DNA of 64,000 bases, taken from Promethearchaeota archaeon (GTDB taxonomy: Archaea > Asgardarchaeota > Lokiarchaeia > Sigyniarchaeales > SOKP01). The notes under the pieces are model-generated. The model did no database searches and was not told the DNA's origin. It saw only the letters and a program-made list of their open reading frames with translations. This document shows, piece by piece, positions 32,293-44,904 of the stretch. Location: the NCBI GenBank assembly GCA_048937405.1, contig JBHLNF010000001.1, positions 624,785-688,784 on the forward strand, in the 5' to 3' direction. Positions within the stretch are counted from its first letter, which is position 1. Each line of letters starts with the position of its first letter. The translations under genes were made by a program, and so were the position numbers.

Positions 32293-35200
32293 TTAAAATA
32301 TAAAAGCACCTGAAATCTGTATAACAAATATTATTCCAAAAAATATGAGTAAGATAATTAAAAAAATAAGCGTATAAAATCGCCACTTAATTGATATATT
32401 TTCCTTTTTTTCTTTAAAAATCATATAAGGTAATAAGATTGCCCCTACAATCCAAATTGAAATCCAAATAGTAAAAATATACCAAATTGGTGTGATAAAA
32501 GCAAATAAAACTATAATAACACTACTCCAACTAATAATTAAACGGATCATTCTCCTTCTAAACTTTATATCTGGATCGTCAGATTTTTTAGATGGCATAA
32601 ATGAATAAAGTAAGCCAAAAATAGGAAATATTAGAAGAGTTGCATGAATAGGATTTAAAAGACCAAATATTACATCTGAGAAAAGAATACCAAAAAATAT
32701 TGAAGCAATTATATTAATAATTGTCCAAATAGCCCTGTAATGAATCTTAATAAAATAGCTTATTTTTAAAAGAACATTCTTAATTATTGTTTTTAGAAGT
32801 CTGAAAATTTTTGATATTGTATCAACAATCCAACTGAAAATTTCTTTTAGTTGTTCTAATAAGAAAATAAAGGGATAAATTAGAAGCATTATAACAAAAA
32901 TAATAATACTAAATATAGAGGATAAAGAAAGCTGGTAAATTATTGAACTTAATAAGAAAAATATTACTAACCAAAAAGTCAATGCTAAAATCGAATGTTT
33001 CTTAAATGGTTTCACTATTATTATCAGAAATATCATAAAAATCAAGAAAGTAATGTTTATATTCAACAGGTGATTATATCCACTGAAATACTCTAATAAT
33101 AAATATAAATCAACGGATAATAAAGCTCCTGAGGTTAAAAAGGCGCTTGATTTCAATATTTTTCGCAGTTTTTCTTCTAAAAAGCTATCAAATAGGGTTA
33201 TTAATAGTAAAATTAAAACAGCAATAAGTATTAAATTAAGATTCATGTTAAAATTGAAGCTAATGAAGTATAAAGGCCAAGTAATGAAATTAATATAAGA
33301 AACAATTATTAGATTAAGTTTAATTTGCTCTTTGTGTAAAACAATTGCATGCCAACTAGATATTAATCTCAAAAGATAAGTAAACTCAATGATAAAGACT
33401 ATTATAACGAGCGGTATAACAGTATAGAATATTTCAATAAAAAAGGTATTATAAAACCAAATTAAATAAAATAAGGAAAAAGCCATAATTAAACCCCAAG
33501 ATAATAACTCAAAATAAGTAACACTTCTTCCTAAAAATTTTAGAAGTTTTTTATCGATAATCATTAAGACGTGAATAATACAGCTAATTACTAATAAAAT
33601 TATTTGGAAATTTATTCTTTGTATAATTAATAATTGTAGTATAATAATACTCAATAAAAAATAGAAAAATGCTCCTAAAATGTGTTGGATAGAGCTTTTA
33701 TATCTTCTAAATGTATCTATCTTCTGAGGGGATAACATTTCTAATGATTTAAAAAGAGAGAAATTTGAATAGAATTGCATTATAAGAAATATCAAAAACT
33801 CTAAACTCAATAAGATAGAATATAGAGATATATATTGATTTAAGATAATAAGTAGCATTATTGAAATAACAATAAAGGAAATGGAGTGAACAAATCTTGC
33901 ATAAAATTTTATTATTTTTTTTATCGAATAAATGTCTAAAATCGTTAAAATGAATAATATTAATAAAGAAGAGAGGATACTCTCAAATAATCCCAAATAC
34001 TTGATTGATAGTCCATATGTAATTAAGCTTATTTCAAGATATAATGCTAAAAATAAATTTGAATGCATCTTTTCCAAAAAATTCGGATATTTTTGTTCAG
34101 GTAAAATTTTATTATAGATTTTTATGGTATTAAACGTTAAACATATTTGCAAAAATATAATTATATTAACTATAAGGAAATTCAAATAATTTAGGATATG
34201 AAAAATATAGGCTAAATTTATTCCTGATAATCCTTGAAATACGATAAAAAGAATAAATTCGACCCGATTTTTTAAAGTTTTCTCAAACTTAATTAAAAAG
34301 TAGCTTAAAAAATATAAGAATAGAAAAGCATTTTGAATTAATAACGAATATTCTAGAAATCCTCTTATTTCTTCAAAGAGTAGTAATAATCCTCCTGAAA
34401 TTAGAGAACTTAAGTAAAAAGAACTCCAAATAAATGAATTATAGATGAGAATCAAGCGAGTAGAAGATCTTATTGAATGGTATTTATCTAAGTGAGAGGA
34501 TAATTTAACAGAGATAAGATTTAGGAGAGATATTGTTAACATTAACAGAAATAGATTTAAATATAATAAAAACAAAAGTACTGCTAATGTATTACAGAAA
34601 ATTAACCATGACCATAGATTGAACCAATTCCTAGTTGATTTAAACATGAATTTAAAATAATAGTTATCTAATATGAAACCTTCTATGAACAAAATTCCAC
34701 TAAACAATATTAAAAATGAAAATATAATAAAACGAATTTCCCAATTAATAAAAAAAAGATAAAGTAATAGATTAAATCCTGAAGCTAAAGGAATTAGGAG
34801 GTATAAAATATAACTAATTTTATTGAAAAAGAGGGTATATTCTTTAAAATTCACGTTTAAATCCGATTTTTCGATGTATTTCATGCAAAATAAGAAAAGA
34901 ACTGACCATATTATGAGAAAATCACATAGTTGGTATATTATTAAAATTTGAGTAAATAATAGCTGTTTCATTAAATTTGGTAAAATTATTCCAATAAATA
35001 ATGAAATACAAATTGAGTTTAATAGAAAACATATAAAATTAAACCACCTTAACTGAATTTTATTTTTGTAAATTCTAAAGATACTATTTTCTATTTCTTG
35101 AGATTCTTGTTTTATTTCTTGCGTTTCCTGTTGGACTGACTTTTTGAAGATATTAATAATAATCTGAAAAACAATGAGATATAACATTGACCAAGTTAGC

Positions 35201-38200
35201 AACCAATAAGGTTGAATAACGTCTAAACTTAACATAGCTTCCAAAATTGGAGAATTTATAGGAATTGGGAAGCAAAACCAGAGGAAATAGCGATATTCTT
35301 TAATTAAAAAATAAAAAAATAAAATAGATACAGAAGAAAAAGTCGAAATTAATATCCCTGGTGACGCCTTGAAAATCAATGATACAAAAGAAGTAGCAGA
35401 TAATGAAGCTCCAATAATGATAATTAAATATTGAATTATGTTATTGATAGGTAGTCCCATTCTATATCGATTAAAAATGAAAAATGAGAAACCAATAACA
35501 GTTAACCAAAGAGAGGACGCTAATACAAAAAATCCAGTTATAAGATTGATCATATTGAATATTAACCAGGCTAAATTAAATATTAGTATCCATGAGAGGC
35601 TAAAATCTATAATTTTACTAACATATTTATTTGAAATCTTTATATATTTTGAGGAAAAAAGACTCAAACCTACAACAATAAAGCTGATGTTTATAGAAAA
35701 AATGAGATCTAAAATTAATAAATAAAGAATAGAAACGACTGTGAAAAAGATACCTAAAAGACTCACAATATATGCACATAATAAAATAAGTTCACGAGAT
35801 CTTATATTTGGAAAAAATGAATAGACAATTAACAAAAAGCCAATAACTAAAACATCAATTGAAATTGCAATTTCTAAATCAACACTAATAGATATTAAAT
35901 AAAAAAATAAAAAGAAACCATTAACAGCAGTTAACATAAGCCAAATTTTAGATACAATTTTCCAATATTTAACTCCTACGAACAATGGCATTAATAGGAT
36001 AACTGCAAATAAAAGAAAAGATAAATTTCTTAATAAGAGATTACTAATAAATAAATTTAGACTAATCCAATAGAGTAAGAATAGGCTTTCACCCCATATA
36101 ATAAATATAATTTGAAAAAAGTATTTCTTAATTTTTGTATACAGGACAGGTAAAAAAAATAAAGAACATATTATTATCGATATTATAAATGAACCTTTTA
36201 CTTGAAATACCCCAAATTGTAATGAATCAGTAAGTACATCAATTCCAGTAAAACTCTGATATATGATAAAGAAGTTTATAAAAGGTAGAATATTCCATAC
36301 ATACCATCCTGATTTCCAAATTGTCCATGAAATCCTCCAATGATATATTCCAATACAAAAATAAAAAAGAAAAACGCCAAAATCTATAGCGAATATTAAC
36401 GGAACTATAGATAATACGTGCATTGATAGAGAAGCAATGATTATAAAATATAAAAAAGTTGGAAAAGCTATAACTATAGAAGCAAGTATAGCAAAGAAAA
36501 ATTTATTTCTAAGCCTTTTTGGAGCATCATTATATAATAAAATTAATCCAAAATCTGATATACTTAGAGTGAGAGTGAAAGTTAAAATTGGATTGTAAGT
36601 ACCATAAATCTGATTATTAAAGAACCATGAGTATGATAAAAAGCTAATAAAGTCAAAGACAAATAAAATTACACAAGGTTTAATAAACCATTTATAACGT
36701 TCATCTTTTTGATGGTGAAAGTAAATTCCTGTAAAGAATAAGAATAAGAAAATTGAAATTGTTACGTTATAAATAGCTAAAATATTTGTAAAATTCATGA
36801 GAGAAATAAACGAGAGAATAGAAATTAACAAATATAATGAAAATTTTTCTTGGGTATTGTTTTTCTTAATATTTAGAGTAATAGAGAAAATTAAAACGGA
36901 AATTGTCGTTAAGAGATATAGATTGATGATTATACTTATGTTTGTTAAATTTAGCCCTATCACAACACCATAACTATCTAGAATTACTAGAATCGCAGCA
37001 AAAGTATAATAACTCAACAGAAAATATGATAAAAACCTAAAAATGGAGCTTATACTTCTCTTAGAAAGAATAAGCATATAAGATATTAATATAAGGAGAA
37101 TTGAAAGAGTACTATTAACATAAAGAAGGCTGAAAAATAAGATGATTGAAGTTAGATATAATCTGTAAATATTCAGTGAAGATGACTGTTCTATTACTTC
37201 ATTATATTTTATAGAAAAATAATATAAAATTAAAATCAGATTAACTGTGAGAGATATTATTTTCAAAAGTGAATTTTGATAGAACAATGGTATTGAATTT
37301 AATAAATTGAACAAAATTTCTATATAAATACCCAATAAAGAAAGGTTAAATACAATTTCAGTTATTTTTTTCAATAATAATTTATTTTTGGATGAAATTA
37401 ACCTCAGATTTTTTAGTATGTGAAGGCTTAATGGTGTAAGAATAGTAAATATTAATGATATAAGTAAAATTTTATTTACAATAAAAAATTGATAAGCAAA
37501 CACTTCAATTAGCATATAAATTAAAAAACATAATATTATCTTTATGATCATCCATGCAATTAATTCAGAAATAATTTTTACTTGAGTTAATTTCAGACTT
37601 ATTAAATTATCACTCACTATCAAAAGTAAAAGAAATAATGTGGTAAAAAAACCAATCAGAATAGTGGAATTGAATACTATTGAACTTAAAAAAAGATAAG
37701 ATAGAATATTTGTTGAAAGACTTAAAAATGTGAAAATGTATGATATTGAAATAATTATTCCATAAATTATGATATCTTGATACTTTTTCAAGGTTAAATA
37801 TTTTGGGTCATAGGAGGATGTTAATTTCAAGGTATAAATACTCAATAAAAAGAATAATAAGAAGCTACAACTTAACGTTAGAAAAACTACAGGAGTTAAT
37901 GTAAACCTATTAATAAAGGTCGAAGAAATATAATAAGAAAGAAGTAATGAAAATAGAAACCAGATAATTAGTTTAAGCAATTTGGAGTTTCTTATATATT
38001 TTTCTTTCAACTTAATTTTGATAGCGATAATCTCGAAAATATTAAGAAAAACAAATAGAATTAATAGTGTTAGAGTTATTATTGGAATAAAATTCGCTGC
38101 GAATCCAAATACTTCTATTCCAATGATAAATGGCAATGAAACAATTAAACATGATAATGCTGTAAAATTATAGATTGTTAATTGTCTTACTGATACTAGA

Positions 38201-41200
38201 TTGAAATATTCTTTTTTATAAGCATAATAGAAAATAAAAAACCAAGAGAAAAATAATGCAATAAAAGAAATAAGGATGTTATAAAAAATACCGCCTAACA
38301 ATAAAAATGGATAAAAAAATATTGTTGAAATCGAAATAAAAAATATGGTAATGAATTGTAATCTCCCTAAAATTAAAATAAATTTGCTGTTTAATTCTAA
38401 ATTTTTAGATAGATTACTGAGAATAAATAAAAAAGTAAAAAAAATGTAGAGGGAAAAGTTAATAATATTTATTGGTAAAAGCTTAGAATAAAATATCAAC
38501 CCTTTATTTATTAAATCTAAACTAATTATTAATGGAATTGAAGTAAGTAAACCTGTTAAAGCAATAGAAGTTAAAATTATTCCTAATTTAGCGAGTTTAA
38601 TATGAAACAACTGTTTCTTATAAGAGTAAAAAAGAGGTATGTAAAAGAAGCAGAACATAAAAATTAATGGTAATACAATACAATAAAAAGTCCCAGTTAA
38701 TAAAAAAAATGTATAATAGAAGACCGTCGTAATACCAATACTTAAAGTTAAAATTACATGTAATTTAAGAACCAGATTAACTCGATTTTCATCAGTCTTA
38801 ATTTTCTTCAATATGAAATAATAAATGTCAAGAAGAATAAATGCAATATACAGAGTAAAATTGATAACAGAAAATATTAAAAAAATTAAATCAAAATAAA
38901 ATCCTAAATTGAACAATTCCAAACCTATAATTGTGGGAATTAATGATATTGTAGCTGAAAATAGCAAACTGTTTACTTTTAATAATTTGGATGTAAAGTT
39001 TTTGAAAATCCCTTTCCTCCTCAAATATAGAATTGGAAAGTAAAAGGTTATGGTAAAGATCAGAAGAGGAATTATCAAAACATAAGTTGTATTAAAAGTT
39101 AGCAATAAAAAGAAATAAAAAGCTATAGGTGAACTATATAATAGAATAAATATGTTTATTCTAAAGATGAGATCTTCAGAAAAGAATTCTATTTTTGAAA
39201 ATAGATTGATTATTCCTCCAACAATTATTAATGAAAAATATAATGAATAGATTATATTTTCAACGAAGGATAAAGACTGAAAAATAATAAAAAAAATAGA
39301 GAAAAAGAAAGATAAAATCTCAGTACCAATTAAATATGAATTGATTTTATTGTTTCTCATAAATTTGGATTCATTTATTTTTTCTAAACTCATACCAAAT
39401 TTCAATATTATATAGTAGAAAATAGATGAAATTAAACAATCTAATATTAGAATGATGATATTTATATTAAGTAAGGAGATAATCAGTAAAGATATAAAAA
39501 AATTAACAAGAAATATCCAAAAAATAAAATAACTGAACATCAAGAAGTATTGTAATTTAAAGATATTTAGACTATAATTTAGAAAAAGAAAAATAGTGAA
39601 TACTATTGGAAATAAAATCATTGATATACAGATAGAATATAAAAAATTGACAAATTCAAATACCAGAAAATTCCTAAAATTAATGAAAATAAAAATAACA
39701 AATTCAATTAAAAAACTTATTATAACTGTATATATTCTGAAAGATTTAGGACTTTTAACGTAAAAATATCTAATCCCTAAAATGTATAGAGAAATTAGTA
39801 AAGTTACTAAAATGATAATGCAATGTAAGAGAATATTTGAAATTAGAATTATTAAGGGATCAGATGTAAAAGATGTATATTCGATAATAGCTATTGGAAA
39901 GAATGAGTATAATATTGGTATAAAACTTGCAATAGCCAGTAAATTTTGGTAAACAAGAATATCATCTTTATTAAAATATTCATATTTAACAAAAATTTGT
40001 AATACAAAATACAATGAAAGACAAAATATTAAGAAATTTAATAAAATTATCTCATGCATTAATGGTATTACCCCAAAAGCAACAGAAAACAAAATTGAAA
40101 TTGAATTTAACAACGCTATGTATCTGTTGTACTTTTTAGGACAGAGTTCTGATTTTTGTTCATAATAGACAAGAAAAAAAATAAATGGAAGTATAATTAA
40201 ATTTAAGAGAGGAACTTCAATTAAAAAAGAGAAAATAGTTATTAGTAAAATTAAAACAATAGATATATATGAATTATGTTTTTGATATCTGATATACTTT
40301 TGTATACCACTTTCTCTTGAATTTTCACCTTTTTTAGATATGTAGAATAGATTAAAAAGTTTCGAGTTATAATATACACTAACATAGAACCTAGATTTAA
40401 AAAAAAATAAGATAAAAATGAAAGTTAAAAAAGCATTACTTATTATTTCTAGGTTTGAGTACAATGTACCTCTGAGACTGAATATTAGAATATTAACAAA
40501 TGGCATTTGAATTAATAAGATAAAAAAAAGATTGACTATGAAAATTACAAATTGCTGTTTATAAGTAATCAGGTCCTTTAGAATTGGCTTATTCTCAACA
40601 ATCAGTTCTTTAATCTTATTAATTTGATTTTTAGTTGATGATAAAGTTAATATGTAGATAAGAATGTTTGTAATTAAACAAAAAAGCCAAGAAAATTCGG
40701 TAAATGTTGTAAAACTCAGAAATATAATATGAATGAAGTAATTGACGACAATGATAAAATTATCTGGTTGTTTAAGTGATGATTTAATATTTTTTGCATG
40801 TTTAAACTCCTTCTCCTCTAAATTAAAATAATCTAATGGTTGAAATTTATAATAATAATATACGATATTATAAAGAATTGTATAACTAACTAGAGGAAGT
40901 AAAGTAAAGTGAATATTTACAGGGGAAATTAAATAAAATATTGGTGTTATTAGCAAAGAAAAGATAGTAATCAAAAATAAACTATGAATTCTGGCGGGGG
41001 GGTTATTTTTTTTATTTAAAAAGAATGGTTTTCTTCTATATTTATCATATACTTTAAAAAAAAATAGGAGAGCATAAATAAAACTTAATACAGAAAATGA
41101 GAATGAAATGTAAAAATTTACTCCAGATTGAGTGAGGATCACAATTACTAAAAACGAAATAATCAACGGAGCAATAATTAAATAAAAACAAAACCACCAA

Positions 41201-41268
41201 GACTTTTGGAGAAATTCAGTGGCTTTTTTAATTTTTTCTTGTGAGTTATTACTATTTTCCGTTAACAT
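32293..41268 (-). CDS. Giant polytopic membrane protein (2991 aa)
   Basis: Uninterrupted 9-kb ORF in AT-rich DNA; hydrophobic segments alternate with short Lys-rich loops along the whole length. Confidence 0.85.
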   Translation of the reverse strand: MLTENSNNSQEKIKKATEFLQKSWWFCFYLIIAPLIISFLVIVILTQSGVNFYISFSFSVLSFIYALLFFFKVYDKYRRKPFFLNKKNNPPARIHSLFLITIFSLLITPIFYLISPVNIHFTLLPLVSYTILYNIVYYYYKFQPLDYFNLEEKEFKHAKNIKSSLKQPDNFIIVVNYFIHIIFLSFTTFTEFSWLFCLITNILIYILTLSSTKNQINKIKELIVENKPILKDLITYKQQFVIFIVNLFFILLIQMPFVNILIFSLRGTLYSNLEIISNAFLTFIFILFFFKSRFYVSVYYNSKLFNLFYISKKGENSRESGIQKYIRYQKHNSYISIVLILLITIFSFLIEVPLLNLIILPFIFFLVYYEQKSELCPKKYNRYIALLNSISILFSVAFGVIPLMHEIILLNFLIFCLSLYFVLQIFVKYEYFNKDDILVYQNLLAIASFIPILYSFFPIAIIEYTSFTSDPLIILISNILLHCIIILVTLLISLYILGIRYFYVKSPKSFRIYTVIISFLIEFVIFIFINFRNFLVFEFVNFLYSICISMILFPIVFTIFLFLNYSLNIFKLQYFLMFSYFIFWIFLVNFFISLLIISLLNINIIILILDCLISSIFYYIILKFGMSLEKINESKFMRNNKINSYLIGTEILSFFFSIFFIIFQSLSFVENIIYSLYFSLIIVGGIINLFSKIEFFSEDLIFRINIFILLYSSPIAFYFFLLLTFNTTYVLIIPLLIFTITFYFPILYLRRKGIFKNFTSKLLKVNSLLFSATISLIPTIIGLELFNLGFYFDLIFLIFSVINFTLYIAFILLDIYYFILKKIKTDENRVNLVLKLHVILTLSIGITTVFYYTFFLLTGTFYCIVLPLIFMFCFFYIPLFYSYKKQLFHIKLAKLGIILTSIALTGLLTSIPLIISLDLINKGLIFYSKLLPINIINFSLYIFFTFLFILSNLSKNLELNSKFILILGRLQFITIFFISISTIFFYPFLLLGGIFYNILISFIALFFSWFFIFYYAYKKEYFNLVSVRQLTIYNFTALSCLIVSLPFIIGIEVFGFAANFIPIITLTLLILFVFLNIFEIIAIKIKLKEKYIRNSKLLKLIIWFLFSLLLSYYISSTFINRFTLTPVVFLTLSCSFLLFFLLSIYTLKLTSSYDPKYLTLKKYQDIIIYGIIISISYIFTFLSLSTNILSYLFLSSIVFNSTILIGFFTTLFLLLLIVSDNLISLKLTQVKIISELIAWMIIKIILCFLIYMLIEVFAYQFFIVNKILLISLIFTILTPLSLHILKNLRLISSKNKLLLKKITEIVFNLSLLGIYIEILFNLLNSIPLFYQNSLLKIISLTVNLILILYYFSIKYNEVIEQSSSLNIYRLYLTSIILFFSLLYVNSTLSILLILISYMLILSKRSISSIFRFLSYFLLSYYTFAAILVILDSYGVVIGLNLTNISIIINLYLLTTISVLIFSITLNIKKNNTQEKFSLYLLISILSFISLMNFTNILAIYNVTISIFLFLFFTGIYFHHQKDERYKWFIKPCVILFVFDFISFLSYSWFFNNQIYGTYNPILTFTLTLSISDFGLILLYNDAPKRLRNKFFFAILASIVIAFPTFLYFIIIASLSMHVLSIVPLIFAIDFGVFLFYFCIGIYHWRISWTIWKSGWYVWNILPFINFFIIYQSFTGIDVLTDSLQFGVFQVKGSFIISIIICSLFFLPVLYTKIKKYFFQIIFIIWGESLFLLYWISLNLFISNLLLRNLSFLLFAVILLMPLFVGVKYWKIVSKIWLMLTAVNGFFLFFYLISISVDLEIAISIDVLVIGFLLIVYSFFPNIRSRELILLCAYIVSLLGIFFTVVSILYLLILDLIFSINISFIVVGLSLFSSKYIKISNKYVSKIIDFSLSWILIFNLAWLIFNMINLITGFFVLASSLWLTVIGFSFFIFNRYRMGLPINNIIQYLIIIIGASLSATSFVSLIFKASPGILISTFSSVSILFFYFLIKEYRYFLWFCFPIPINSPILEAMLSLDVIQPYWLLTWSMLYLIVFQIIINIFKKSVQQETQEIKQESQEIENSIFRIYKNKIQLRWFNFICFLLNSICISLFIGIILPNLMKQLLFTQILIIYQLCDFLIIWSVLFLFCMKYIEKSDLNVNFKEYTLFFNKISYILYLLIPLASGFNLLLYLFFINWEIRFIIFSFLILFSGILFIEGFILDNYYFKFMFKSTRNWFNLWSWLIFCNTLAVLLFLLYLNLFLLMLTISLLNLISVKLSSHLDKYHSIRSSTRLILIYNSFIWSSFYLSSLISGGLLLLFEEIRGFLEYSLLIQNAFLFLYFLSYFLIKFEKTLKNRVEFILFIVFQGLSGINLAYIFHILNYLNFLIVNIIIFLQICLTFNTIKIYNKILPEQKYPNFLEKMHSNLFLALYLEISLITYGLSIKYLGLFESILSSLLILFILTILDIYSIKKIIKFYARFVHSISFIVISIMLLIILNQYISLYSILLSLEFLIFLIMQFYSNFSLFKSLEMLSPQKIDTFRRYKSSIQHILGAFFYFLLSIIILQLLIIQRINFQIILLVISCIIHVLMIIDKKLLKFLGRSVTYFELLSWGLIMAFSLFYLIWFYNTFFIEIFYTVIPLVIIVFIIEFTYLLRLISSWHAIVLHKEQIKLNLIIVSYINFITWPLYFISFNFNMNLNLILIAVLILLLITLFDSFLEEKLRKILKSSAFLTSGALLSVDLYLLLEYFSGYNHLLNINITFLIFMIFLIIIVKPFKKHSILALTFWLVIFFLLSSIIYQLSLSSIFSIIIFVIMLLIYPFIFLLEQLKEIFSWIVDTISKIFRLLKTIIKNVLLKISYFIKIHYRAIWTIINIIASIFFGILFSDVIFGLLNPIHATLLIFPIFGLLYSFMPSKKSDDPDIKFRRRMIRLIISWSSVIIVLFAFITPIWYIFTIWISIWIVGAILLPYMIFKEKKENISIKWRFYTLIFLIILLIFFGIIFVIQISGAFIF

Positions 41269-42880: not shown

Positions 42881-42909
42881 AATGGGAAGGGAATGGGAAG
42901 ATTTATATA
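42881..42909 (+). promoter_or_regulatory. Tandem AATGGGAAG repeat (period 11) followed by TATA box TTTATATA
   Basis: AATGGGAAG at 42881-42889 and 42892-42900; TTTATATA at 42902-42909. Confidence 0.55.
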
Positions 42910-42932
42910 GCAATTTTGACTTATTTTAAATA

Positions 42933-43145
42933 ATGAGTTTTTCACATAATACAACGGATTATTGGTGCAAGACCCAAGGTAAGGTATTACCGGTAATCCG
43001 TGGTATTAAGAGAGAATAAATCAAAACTCTTGACCTTTTTCTTATAATTTTTCCTGATTTGTTCTCTTTTATAACTACAACTCAATAAAATTTATTTGAA
43101 ATGGGTCAATAATAAAATTGATTCTCCAAGTGAAGGATTCAATAA
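42933..43145 (+). ncRNA. Candidate structured RNA (5' leader or sRNA)
   Basis: Two long hairpins with G-U pairs that form only on the + strand: 42947-42966 with 42989-43008, and 43009-43023 with 43055-43069. Several loop complementarities. Confidence 0.5.
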
Positions 43146-43164
43146 AAAATAGAGGTGAAAATTT

Positions 43165-43344
43165 TTGGAGGAAGAATCAAGGAAAACTGATCTAATATTG
43201 GATTATTATAAAGATTGGGATTCTTATAAAGCCCCAGTCATGATGTCAATTGACATCCCTAATGATTTTTCAGAAAGCCTTGAGGCAAAAGATGATAGGA
43301 GACTAAAAGCCTTGAGACTTAAAATGAAAAAAAGACTGGAGTAA
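43165..43344 (+). CDS. Unannotated 59-aa small protein
   Basis: GAGGTGA RBS, then TTG: MEEESRKTDLILDYYKDWDSYKAPVMMSIDIPNDFSESLEAKDDRRLKALRLKMKKRLE*. Confidence 0.7.
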   Translation: MEEESRKTDLILDYYKDWDSYKAPVMMSIDIPNDFSESLEAKDDRRLKALRLKMKKRLE

Positions 43345-43391
43345 AAAAGAAATAAGGATCTTTTATATTTTATTAACTTTTTTTAAATTTA

Positions 43392-44706: not shown

Positions 44707-44904
44707 TTATATAGGATAATCTTGTCTTATCTGCAGTTCACGTTTCATGTTCTCAATTTGATATTTTATAAAATTAAAAGGTCTTGTTTTTATTTGGTGC
44801 CCAAATTTACGCAAATGCTCTTCTAAAAGATTAATTGAGAGCTCTAATTTATTTATTCTATCTTGGACTTGATTTAACATATAATTATCTCTCCTTAAAC
44901 CCAT
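44707..44904 (-). CDS. Small hypothetical helical-hairpin protein
   Basis: 65-aa ORF with heptad-like pattern; internal AGGAG before a second ATG. Confidence 0.55.
   Translation of the reverse strand: MGLRRDNYMLNQVQDRINKLELSINLLEEHLRKFGHQIKTRPFNFIKYQIENMKRELQIRQDYPI

Follow-up and report, generated by a model that had tools for sequence, protein, structure and literature searches.

Ribosome-mediated attenuation is a textbook bacterial mechanism, represented by the leader-peptide attenuators leuL, ilvL/ivbL and pheM-pheST of Escherichia coli. Staphylococcus aureus has a leucine-rich attenuator peptide (PMC5794164); in mycobacteria, leaderless short open reading frames (ORFs) with polycysteine runs are reported to attenuate operon expression (bioRxiv 10.1101/834739); and ermC/ErmCL is reported as a case of translational attenuation (PMC5499644). 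A full-text literature search found leader-peptide control in bacteria only and returned no archaeal example. The subject of this report is a conserved unit on the forward strand of a Promethearchaeota archaeon genome (Lokiarchaeia; assembly GCA_048937405.1, contig JBHLNF010000001.1), located at positions 42881-43344 of a window, that is, the whole stretch of 64,000 nucleotides that was analysed and to which all coordinates below refer unless a contig is named. Judged from sequence comparison, the unit is rather likely to be a single transcript consisting of a promoter, a probably leaderless upstream ORF (uORF), a two-state RNA that is read by the ribosome, and a gene for a 59-amino-acid protein (ORF2) led by a Shine-Dalgarno (SD) sequence.

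The unit resembles the bacterial attenuators in having a short ORF in the leader and, at and after the end of that ORF, RNA that may take up two folds; related leaders at other loci (sister leaders) also carry codon runs that match the gene behind them, Leu before leuA and leuS and Ile before cimA. It differs from them in its archaeal host, in the predicted start of the ORF at the 5′ end of the transcript with no SD sequence, in that its putative sensor codons pair, as the 3′ arm of a long hairpin, with the first third of the same ORF, in the absence of a conserved hairpin-plus-U-run terminator, and, at 42881-43344, in an apparently eroded codon run and a 59-amino-acid target that matches no known family; no Rfam leader family, including Leu_leader, matches the Asgard leaders. 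Like the mycobacterial polycysteine ORFs, the leaders would place a leaderless short ORF first and use amino-acid-specific codons to control downstream genes, but the mycobacterial ORFs are bacterial and sense cysteine, and the comparison extends to the ORFs rather than to the RNA architectures (bioRxiv 10.1101/834739). As in ermC/ErmCL (PMC5499644), a ribosome held on the uORF would remodel the hairpins, and the downstream SD could pair with uORF codons 3-5; unlike that system, no drug or arrest peptide is implied, and masking of the SD is not consistently supported by folding models.

The upstream reading frame and the leader RNA

The unit occurs in about 50 Lokiarchaeia species. An initial sample of 24 genomes of the genus contained it in approximately 21 cases, and it is present in 49 of 49 loci recovered from species-representative genomes by means of the ORF2 motif, with leader and ORF2 found together at every locus. 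The surrounding DNA of the window is AT-rich, and nucleotide conservation begins sharply at about 42880 and runs through ORF2 to a T-run. The TATA box TTTATATA (42902-42909, +) is conserved, and the distance from its first base to the ATG at 42933 is 31 nt, the same in most loci. By general archaeal promoter geometry, this spacing would put the start of transcription on the ATG or immediately beside it; no SD sequence precedes the ATG, and the uORF is probably leaderless, so that its translation would begin at the very 5′ end of the transcript.

The uORF (42933-43019, +) comprises 28 codons and a TAA stop codon (43017-43019). It is open in every homologue, with a length of 25 to 32 codons. Among 39 distinct sequences, the stretch between the ATG and the second hairpin contains no stop codon in the uORF frame, whereas its other two frames contain 86 and 80; the six lengths that this stretch takes in the commoner form of the leader are all multiples of three, its insertions and deletions preserving the frame. 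Substitution rates at the three codon positions are slightly periodic in the uORF (0.345, 0.266 and 0.385; the corresponding values for ORF2 are 0.310, 0.239 and 0.403). One clade reads the conserved 3′ arm of the first hairpin (GTAGTATTAT) as ..S-I-I.. and another as ..V-V-L-stop, and because the frames differ, it is the open frame and not the C-terminal peptide sequence that selection would be keeping. The N-terminal MSFS..NTT motif of the peptide is conserved, and its NTT codons are complementary to that same hairpin arm. Taken together, the alignments indicate that selection maintains a frame that is open across the first hairpin and ends at the second; the short leader ORF of the classical attenuators would have its counterpart in this conserved frame.

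The sequence-only reading that preceded this analysis did not contain the 28-codon frame; it had described an attenuator-like leader in front of a small protein, and its direction, structure and strand stand, while the notion of a purely non-coding leader does not. The minimum free energy of the 236-nt leader on the + strand is -63.1 kcal/mol, compared with -39.0 ± 4.0 kcal/mol for dinucleotide-shuffled sequences (z = -6.0), and none of 200 shuffles folds as well. The - strand has z = -3.6, and in 41 of 45 homologues the + strand folds more stably than the - strand, with sampled z-scores from -3.0 to -6.2.

Both hairpins that the sequence-only reading had drawn were recovered. Hairpin 1 (H1, 42947-43008, +) lies wholly inside the uORF and has 23 pairs according to RNAfold; it folds with 19 to 27 pairs in every homologue. 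Its inner stem differs between homologues, with about seven versions of unrelated sequence; its outer stem, counted by anchoring on a conserved C:G pair, covaries (positions 3-5 switch among G-C, A-T, T-A and G-T), and its apex has no conserved sequence. RNAalifold applied to a plain MAFFT alignment recovers only hairpin 2, because that alignment fails to match up the H1 arms of different clades. Hairpin 2 (H2) pairs a 5′ arm at 43009-43022 (+), which holds the uORF stop codon, with a 3′ arm at 43056-43069 (+); 99.7% of alignment cells are paired, every change on one side only leaves a pair that is wobble-compatible on the + strand, and the top pair is A-U in 22 sequences and C-G in 13.

A third helix (H3) would compete with H2. 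Its 5′ strand, together with a U-tract, is the loop strand CTTGACC-TTTTT-C of H2 (43029-43041, +), and its 3′ strand is GAAATGGGTCAA (43098-43109, +). Five of its seven pairs have changed on both sides, and controls in which one strand is slid drop to 39-54% paired. The pairing of TTGACC (43030) with GGTCAA (43104), which had been proposed from the letters alone, is thereby supported, and covariation extends to H1, the top pair of H2 and this helix; in contrast, the pairings proposed for the loop of H1 (GACCCA and AAGGT) were abandoned, since the sequence there differs between clades. H2 and H3 are both supported; they are mutually exclusive in most sister leaders, and the 33-nt gap at this locus also permits a pseudoknot.

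Other pairings were considered. GATTCTCC and GTGAAGGATTCA, both within 43120-43141 (+), are candidate partners of the 5′ arm of H2 and of the 5′ end (42934-42945), respectively; they are paired in 86-88% and 82.5% of cells, with few changes on both sides and weaker support than the other helices. The pairing of GAGTTTT with AAAACTC is 79% paired, but many sequences have gaps at the site. The SD sequence GAGGTGA (43152-43158, +) is invariant, and GTGAAAA of the SD region can pair with codons 3-5 of the uORF (TTTTCAC, 42939-42945); 96% of cells are paired, and the invariance of the sequence makes covariation uninformative. The conserved sequence blocks are both arms of H2, the loop CCTTTTTCTTATAA and TTATTTGAAA. 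U-tracts are conserved within the H2 loop, and the leader of this locus has T-runs at 43036-43040 and 43047-43051. Oligo-U alone suffices for archaeal termination, and therefore the bacterial criterion of an intrinsic terminator may not apply. The H2 loop was considered as the site of another promoter, a possibility that was rejected: the TATA-like word varies (TTGTTC or TTTTAC in some species), and its columns pair and covary as RNA. The sequence-only reading had been unable to match the structure to SECIS, SRP, tRNA or known riboswitch consensuses; no Rfam family reached its gathering threshold in the window, the best sub-threshold E-values being at least 2.5 (noise), and a search of the window for tRNA and tmRNA found nothing.

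In the proposed mechanism, a ribosome translating the uORF would decide how the RNA folds. The uORF runs through H1 and terminates at or inside the 5′ arm of H2. A ribosome lingering at the end of the uORF would hold H1 open and cover the 5′ arm of H2, and the U-rich loop strand would then pair with GAAATGGGTCAA rather than stay in the loop of H2; a ribosome that finishes and leaves would let H2 form. One fold would permit expression of the downstream gene, and the other would block it, through premature termination at the U-tracts or through masking of the ribosome-binding site. We infer that the position of the ribosome selects between H2 and the alternative helix and in this way sets downstream expression.

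Sister leaders and the genes behind them

A covariance model built on the H2 region (R1) matches a second locus in the same genome (E = 3e-4) and second loci in many relatives. Within the host family it has matches in 101 of the 130 genomes sampled, across seven genera; among 19 genomes from three other families of the order it has none. Five further leaders, all outside the window, were identified in the host genome (C7:562333(-), C20:77277(+), C22:51478(-), C15:4974(+) and C25:146890(-)) with the covariance model and the second of two genome scans; the other scan, limited to stems that contain GC, gave too much noise and overlooked copies already known. Rfam has no match in these five loci, and a MAFFT alignment of the six leaders of the genome, with 51% column identity, was uninformative.

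The leaders share a common plan: a TATA box, an ATG 31-39 nt further on, a frame of 20-35 codons over a hairpin, and a stop codon at the base of an H2-like stem. A loop strand of the CCTTTTTC type pairs with a downstream GAAA.AGG strand; the CCTTTTTC core is common to the sister leaders, and the flanks of H3 covary freely between loci. The locus at 42881-43344 has every architectural feature of the R1 family. In most sister leaders the downstream strand of H3 follows the 3′ arm of H2 by only 0-2 nt, and H2 and H3 are therefore mutually exclusive there. The pseudoknot potential noticed by the sequence-only reading is accordingly most likely an alternative fold in the sister leaders, although a pseudoknot is topologically possible at 42881-43344. 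The nearest relatives in other genera have almost the same loop (CTGACC-TTTTT-CTTATAA) and the same arms of H2; their frames close with Val or Leu runs, and the small proteins encoded behind them have 45-65 amino acids, one of these proteins being clearly ORF2-like.

The codon runs of the sister leaders match the genes that they precede. In the host genome, the uORF before 2-isopropylmalate synthase (leuA) has 33 codons, of which 14 are Leu, including the last seven, and the uORF before citramalate synthase (cimA), the first enzyme of isoleucine synthesis, has 23 codons, of which 12 are Ile. The uORF before an archaeal-type leucyl-tRNA synthetase (LeuRS) ends in a Leu run in the host genome and ten relatives, and in another genus a bacterial-type LeuRS is preceded by a uORF of 26 codons with 12 Leu. 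Uncommonly many Ile, Leu and Val (I/L/V) codons are also found in the uORFs before a gamma-delta-alpha operon for a 2-oxoacid:ferredoxin oxidoreductase of the pyruvate/ketoisovalerate type and before an FrhB-like Fe-S protein. DNA searches with the cimA and leuA leaders found few alignable copies within the genus; when uORFs were sought directly before leuA, frames with Leu runs were present in eight of nine relatives, though the leader DNA is no longer alignable. In the sister leaders, I/L/V make up 0.6-1.0 of the last ten uORF codons, versus a background of 0.31 in random small ORFs of the genome, only 2.7% of which reach 0.7.

Because the terminal Leu, Ile and Val runs match the controlled genes, the sister leaders most likely gauge the supply of charged tRNA, and starvation would turn expression on. 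They have both a run of codons for the amino acid of the controlled gene and a controlled gene in amino-acid synthesis or tRNA charging, as classical attenuators do; the uORF at 42933-43019 lacks such a run, and ORF2 has no known link to genes of that kind. The run of this uORF appears to have eroded to a few Ile and Val codons, while the frame, both hairpins and the alternative helix have been retained. We consider the chances evenly balanced that the leaders constitute a Lokiarchaeia regulon of leaderless leader-peptide switches through which the ribosome reads the supply of leucine, isoleucine and valine, and that the 59-amino-acid protein is the target of one member and a new small effector of the response to branched-chain starvation. 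If this is true, the prokaryotes most closely related to eukaryotes use coupled transcription and translation to sense amino acids, sensing can begin from leaderless initiation, and small proteins such as ORF2 become assignable to a physiological response. The family contains natural controls, with different codon runs before different genes on one scaffold, that make the proposal directly testable.

Two more Ile-rich small ORFs follow TATA-like words in the host genome (C28:237455(-) and C22:77489(+)); they may be leaders or membrane peptides.

Arguments for and against ribosome sensing

Several observations weigh against a ribosome-read switch at this locus. The last ten codons of the uORF at 42933-43019 contain 0.4 I/L/V (0.3-0.6 in the genus), a share that is barely above the background of 0.31 and is attained by 37% of random small ORFs. 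H2 is almost invariant, and so most of its pairs neither support nor contradict the structure. Here about 33 nt separate H2 from GGTCAA, and a true pseudoknot could therefore take the place of the switch. When masking of the SD was modelled thermodynamically with and without a ribosome on the uORF, blocking the uORF had no consistent effect on SD accessibility across homologues, and no hairpin followed by a U-run is found in a conserved place across the leader family. ORF2 matches no family and has no known link to amino-acid metabolism. The homologues are from related lineages, and the counts given above overstate their independence.

A different account of the same conservation is a two-gene operon of small proteins, in which the 28-amino-acid peptide and the 59-amino-acid protein are both functional, the folded spacer stabilises the mRNA or couples translation of the second gene to that of the first, and no amino acid is sensed. 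Such an operon would explain why both frames are conserved, why the MSFS..NTT terminus is kept, why no clear amino-acid run is present at 42933-43019, and why the fold places the region of the uORF stop codon near the sequence upstream of the SD. It would not explain why clades differ in the frame used for the C-terminal third of the peptide, or why the sister leaders carry unrelated peptides of equal length and placement whose codon runs fit the genes behind them, and the conservation of NTT has an explanation at the RNA level, as the complement of the 3′ arm of H1; we regard the operon as unlikely. Alternatively, the fold itself could be the sensor and the uORF incidental, the leader binding a ligand (riboswitch), a tRNA (as in a T-box) or a protein, for example ORF2 in autoregulation. 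The highly conserved blocks (the arms of H2, CCTTTTTCTTATAA and TTATTTGAAA), the topologically possible pseudoknot at 42881-43344, the basic C-terminal helix predicted for ORF2 and the presence of a sister leader at LeuRS, a classic bacterial T-box target, are what one would expect of a binding leader, but a stop-free frame with frame-keeping insertions and deletions is unexpected for an incidental ORF, the identity of the amino acid is written in runs of codons and not in a single specifier, no Rfam family, including T-box, matches any of the leaders, and the apex sequence of H1 is not conserved. This too is improbable, and distinctly so.

It is very hard to sustain that the leader is a small RNA gene in its own right, about 200 nt long and perhaps with a dual function, and that ORF2 has a promoter of its own. 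The T-runs within the leader (43036-43040 and 43047-43051) could end such an RNA, and TATA-like AT-rich words in the H2 loop and near 43090 could serve ORF2, but the loop word varies among species, the alignment columns that hold it pair and covary at the RNA level, and leader and ORF2 are always found together. A riboswitch or a small RNA had been offered as alternatives by the sequence-only reading; nothing in the results points to a small-molecule riboswitch or to a free-standing small RNA. The ribosome-read switch is the reading that we prefer.

The 59-amino-acid protein and the surrounding DNA

ORF2 (43165-43344, +) encodes 59 amino acids with a DYYKDWDS motif. Like the TATA box at 42902, it and the GAGGTGA ribosome-binding site at 43152-43158 had been named in the sequence-only reading, and all three held up under comparison. 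Homologues are 43-90% identical in amino acid sequence, and third codon positions are the most variable. The apparent start (43165-43173) is TTG here and CTG in most of the genus, with ATG only in some clades; it lies two codons past a TGA that belongs to GGAGGTGA. A profile search of 1.84 billion proteins found only 11 cluster representatives of ORF2, and two long hits from the profile search were rejected as repeat proteins that share only a YYK-like word. There is no match to ORF2 in Pfam or NCBIfam, and hhalign detected no similarity between ORF2 and the proteins of about 46 amino acids that are encoded behind related leaders in other genera. An AlphaFold2 model consists of two helices, the C-terminal one predicted to be basic, with a low-confidence pLDDT of 68, too weak for a fold search.

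Next to the TATA box is a direct repeat, ATGGGAA-N4-ATGGGAA (42882-42899, +), that is kept in all loci of the ORF2 type, with the second box in opposite orientation in a few lineages; possible roles are a regulator site and an extended B recognition element (BRE). As the motif of a wider regulon the repeat was rejected: no other promoter of the genome has it, its other exact copies being all inside coding DNA. A T-run follows ORF2 in all loci; here it is a run of seven (43378-43384, +), and by analogy with oligo-T termination in archaea it is the probable end of the transcript.

The unit is flanked, here and at the homologous loci, by a divergent gene for a family-4 glycosidase and a convergent gene for an LL-diaminopimelate-type aminotransferase. 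BLAST found a single copy of the unit in the 4.47-Mb genome; this and the fixed synteny indicate that the unit is not a mobile repeat or miniature inverted-repeat transposable element (MITE), one of the outcomes that the sequence-only reading had named as fatal to its proposal. Beside the aminotransferase gene, and likewise in several relatives, is an ORF for a coiled-coil-like protein of 65 amino acids (44707-44904, -) with no match in Pfam. Elsewhere in the window, an ORF of 2991 amino acids (32293-41268, -) consists almost entirely of hydrophobic segments.
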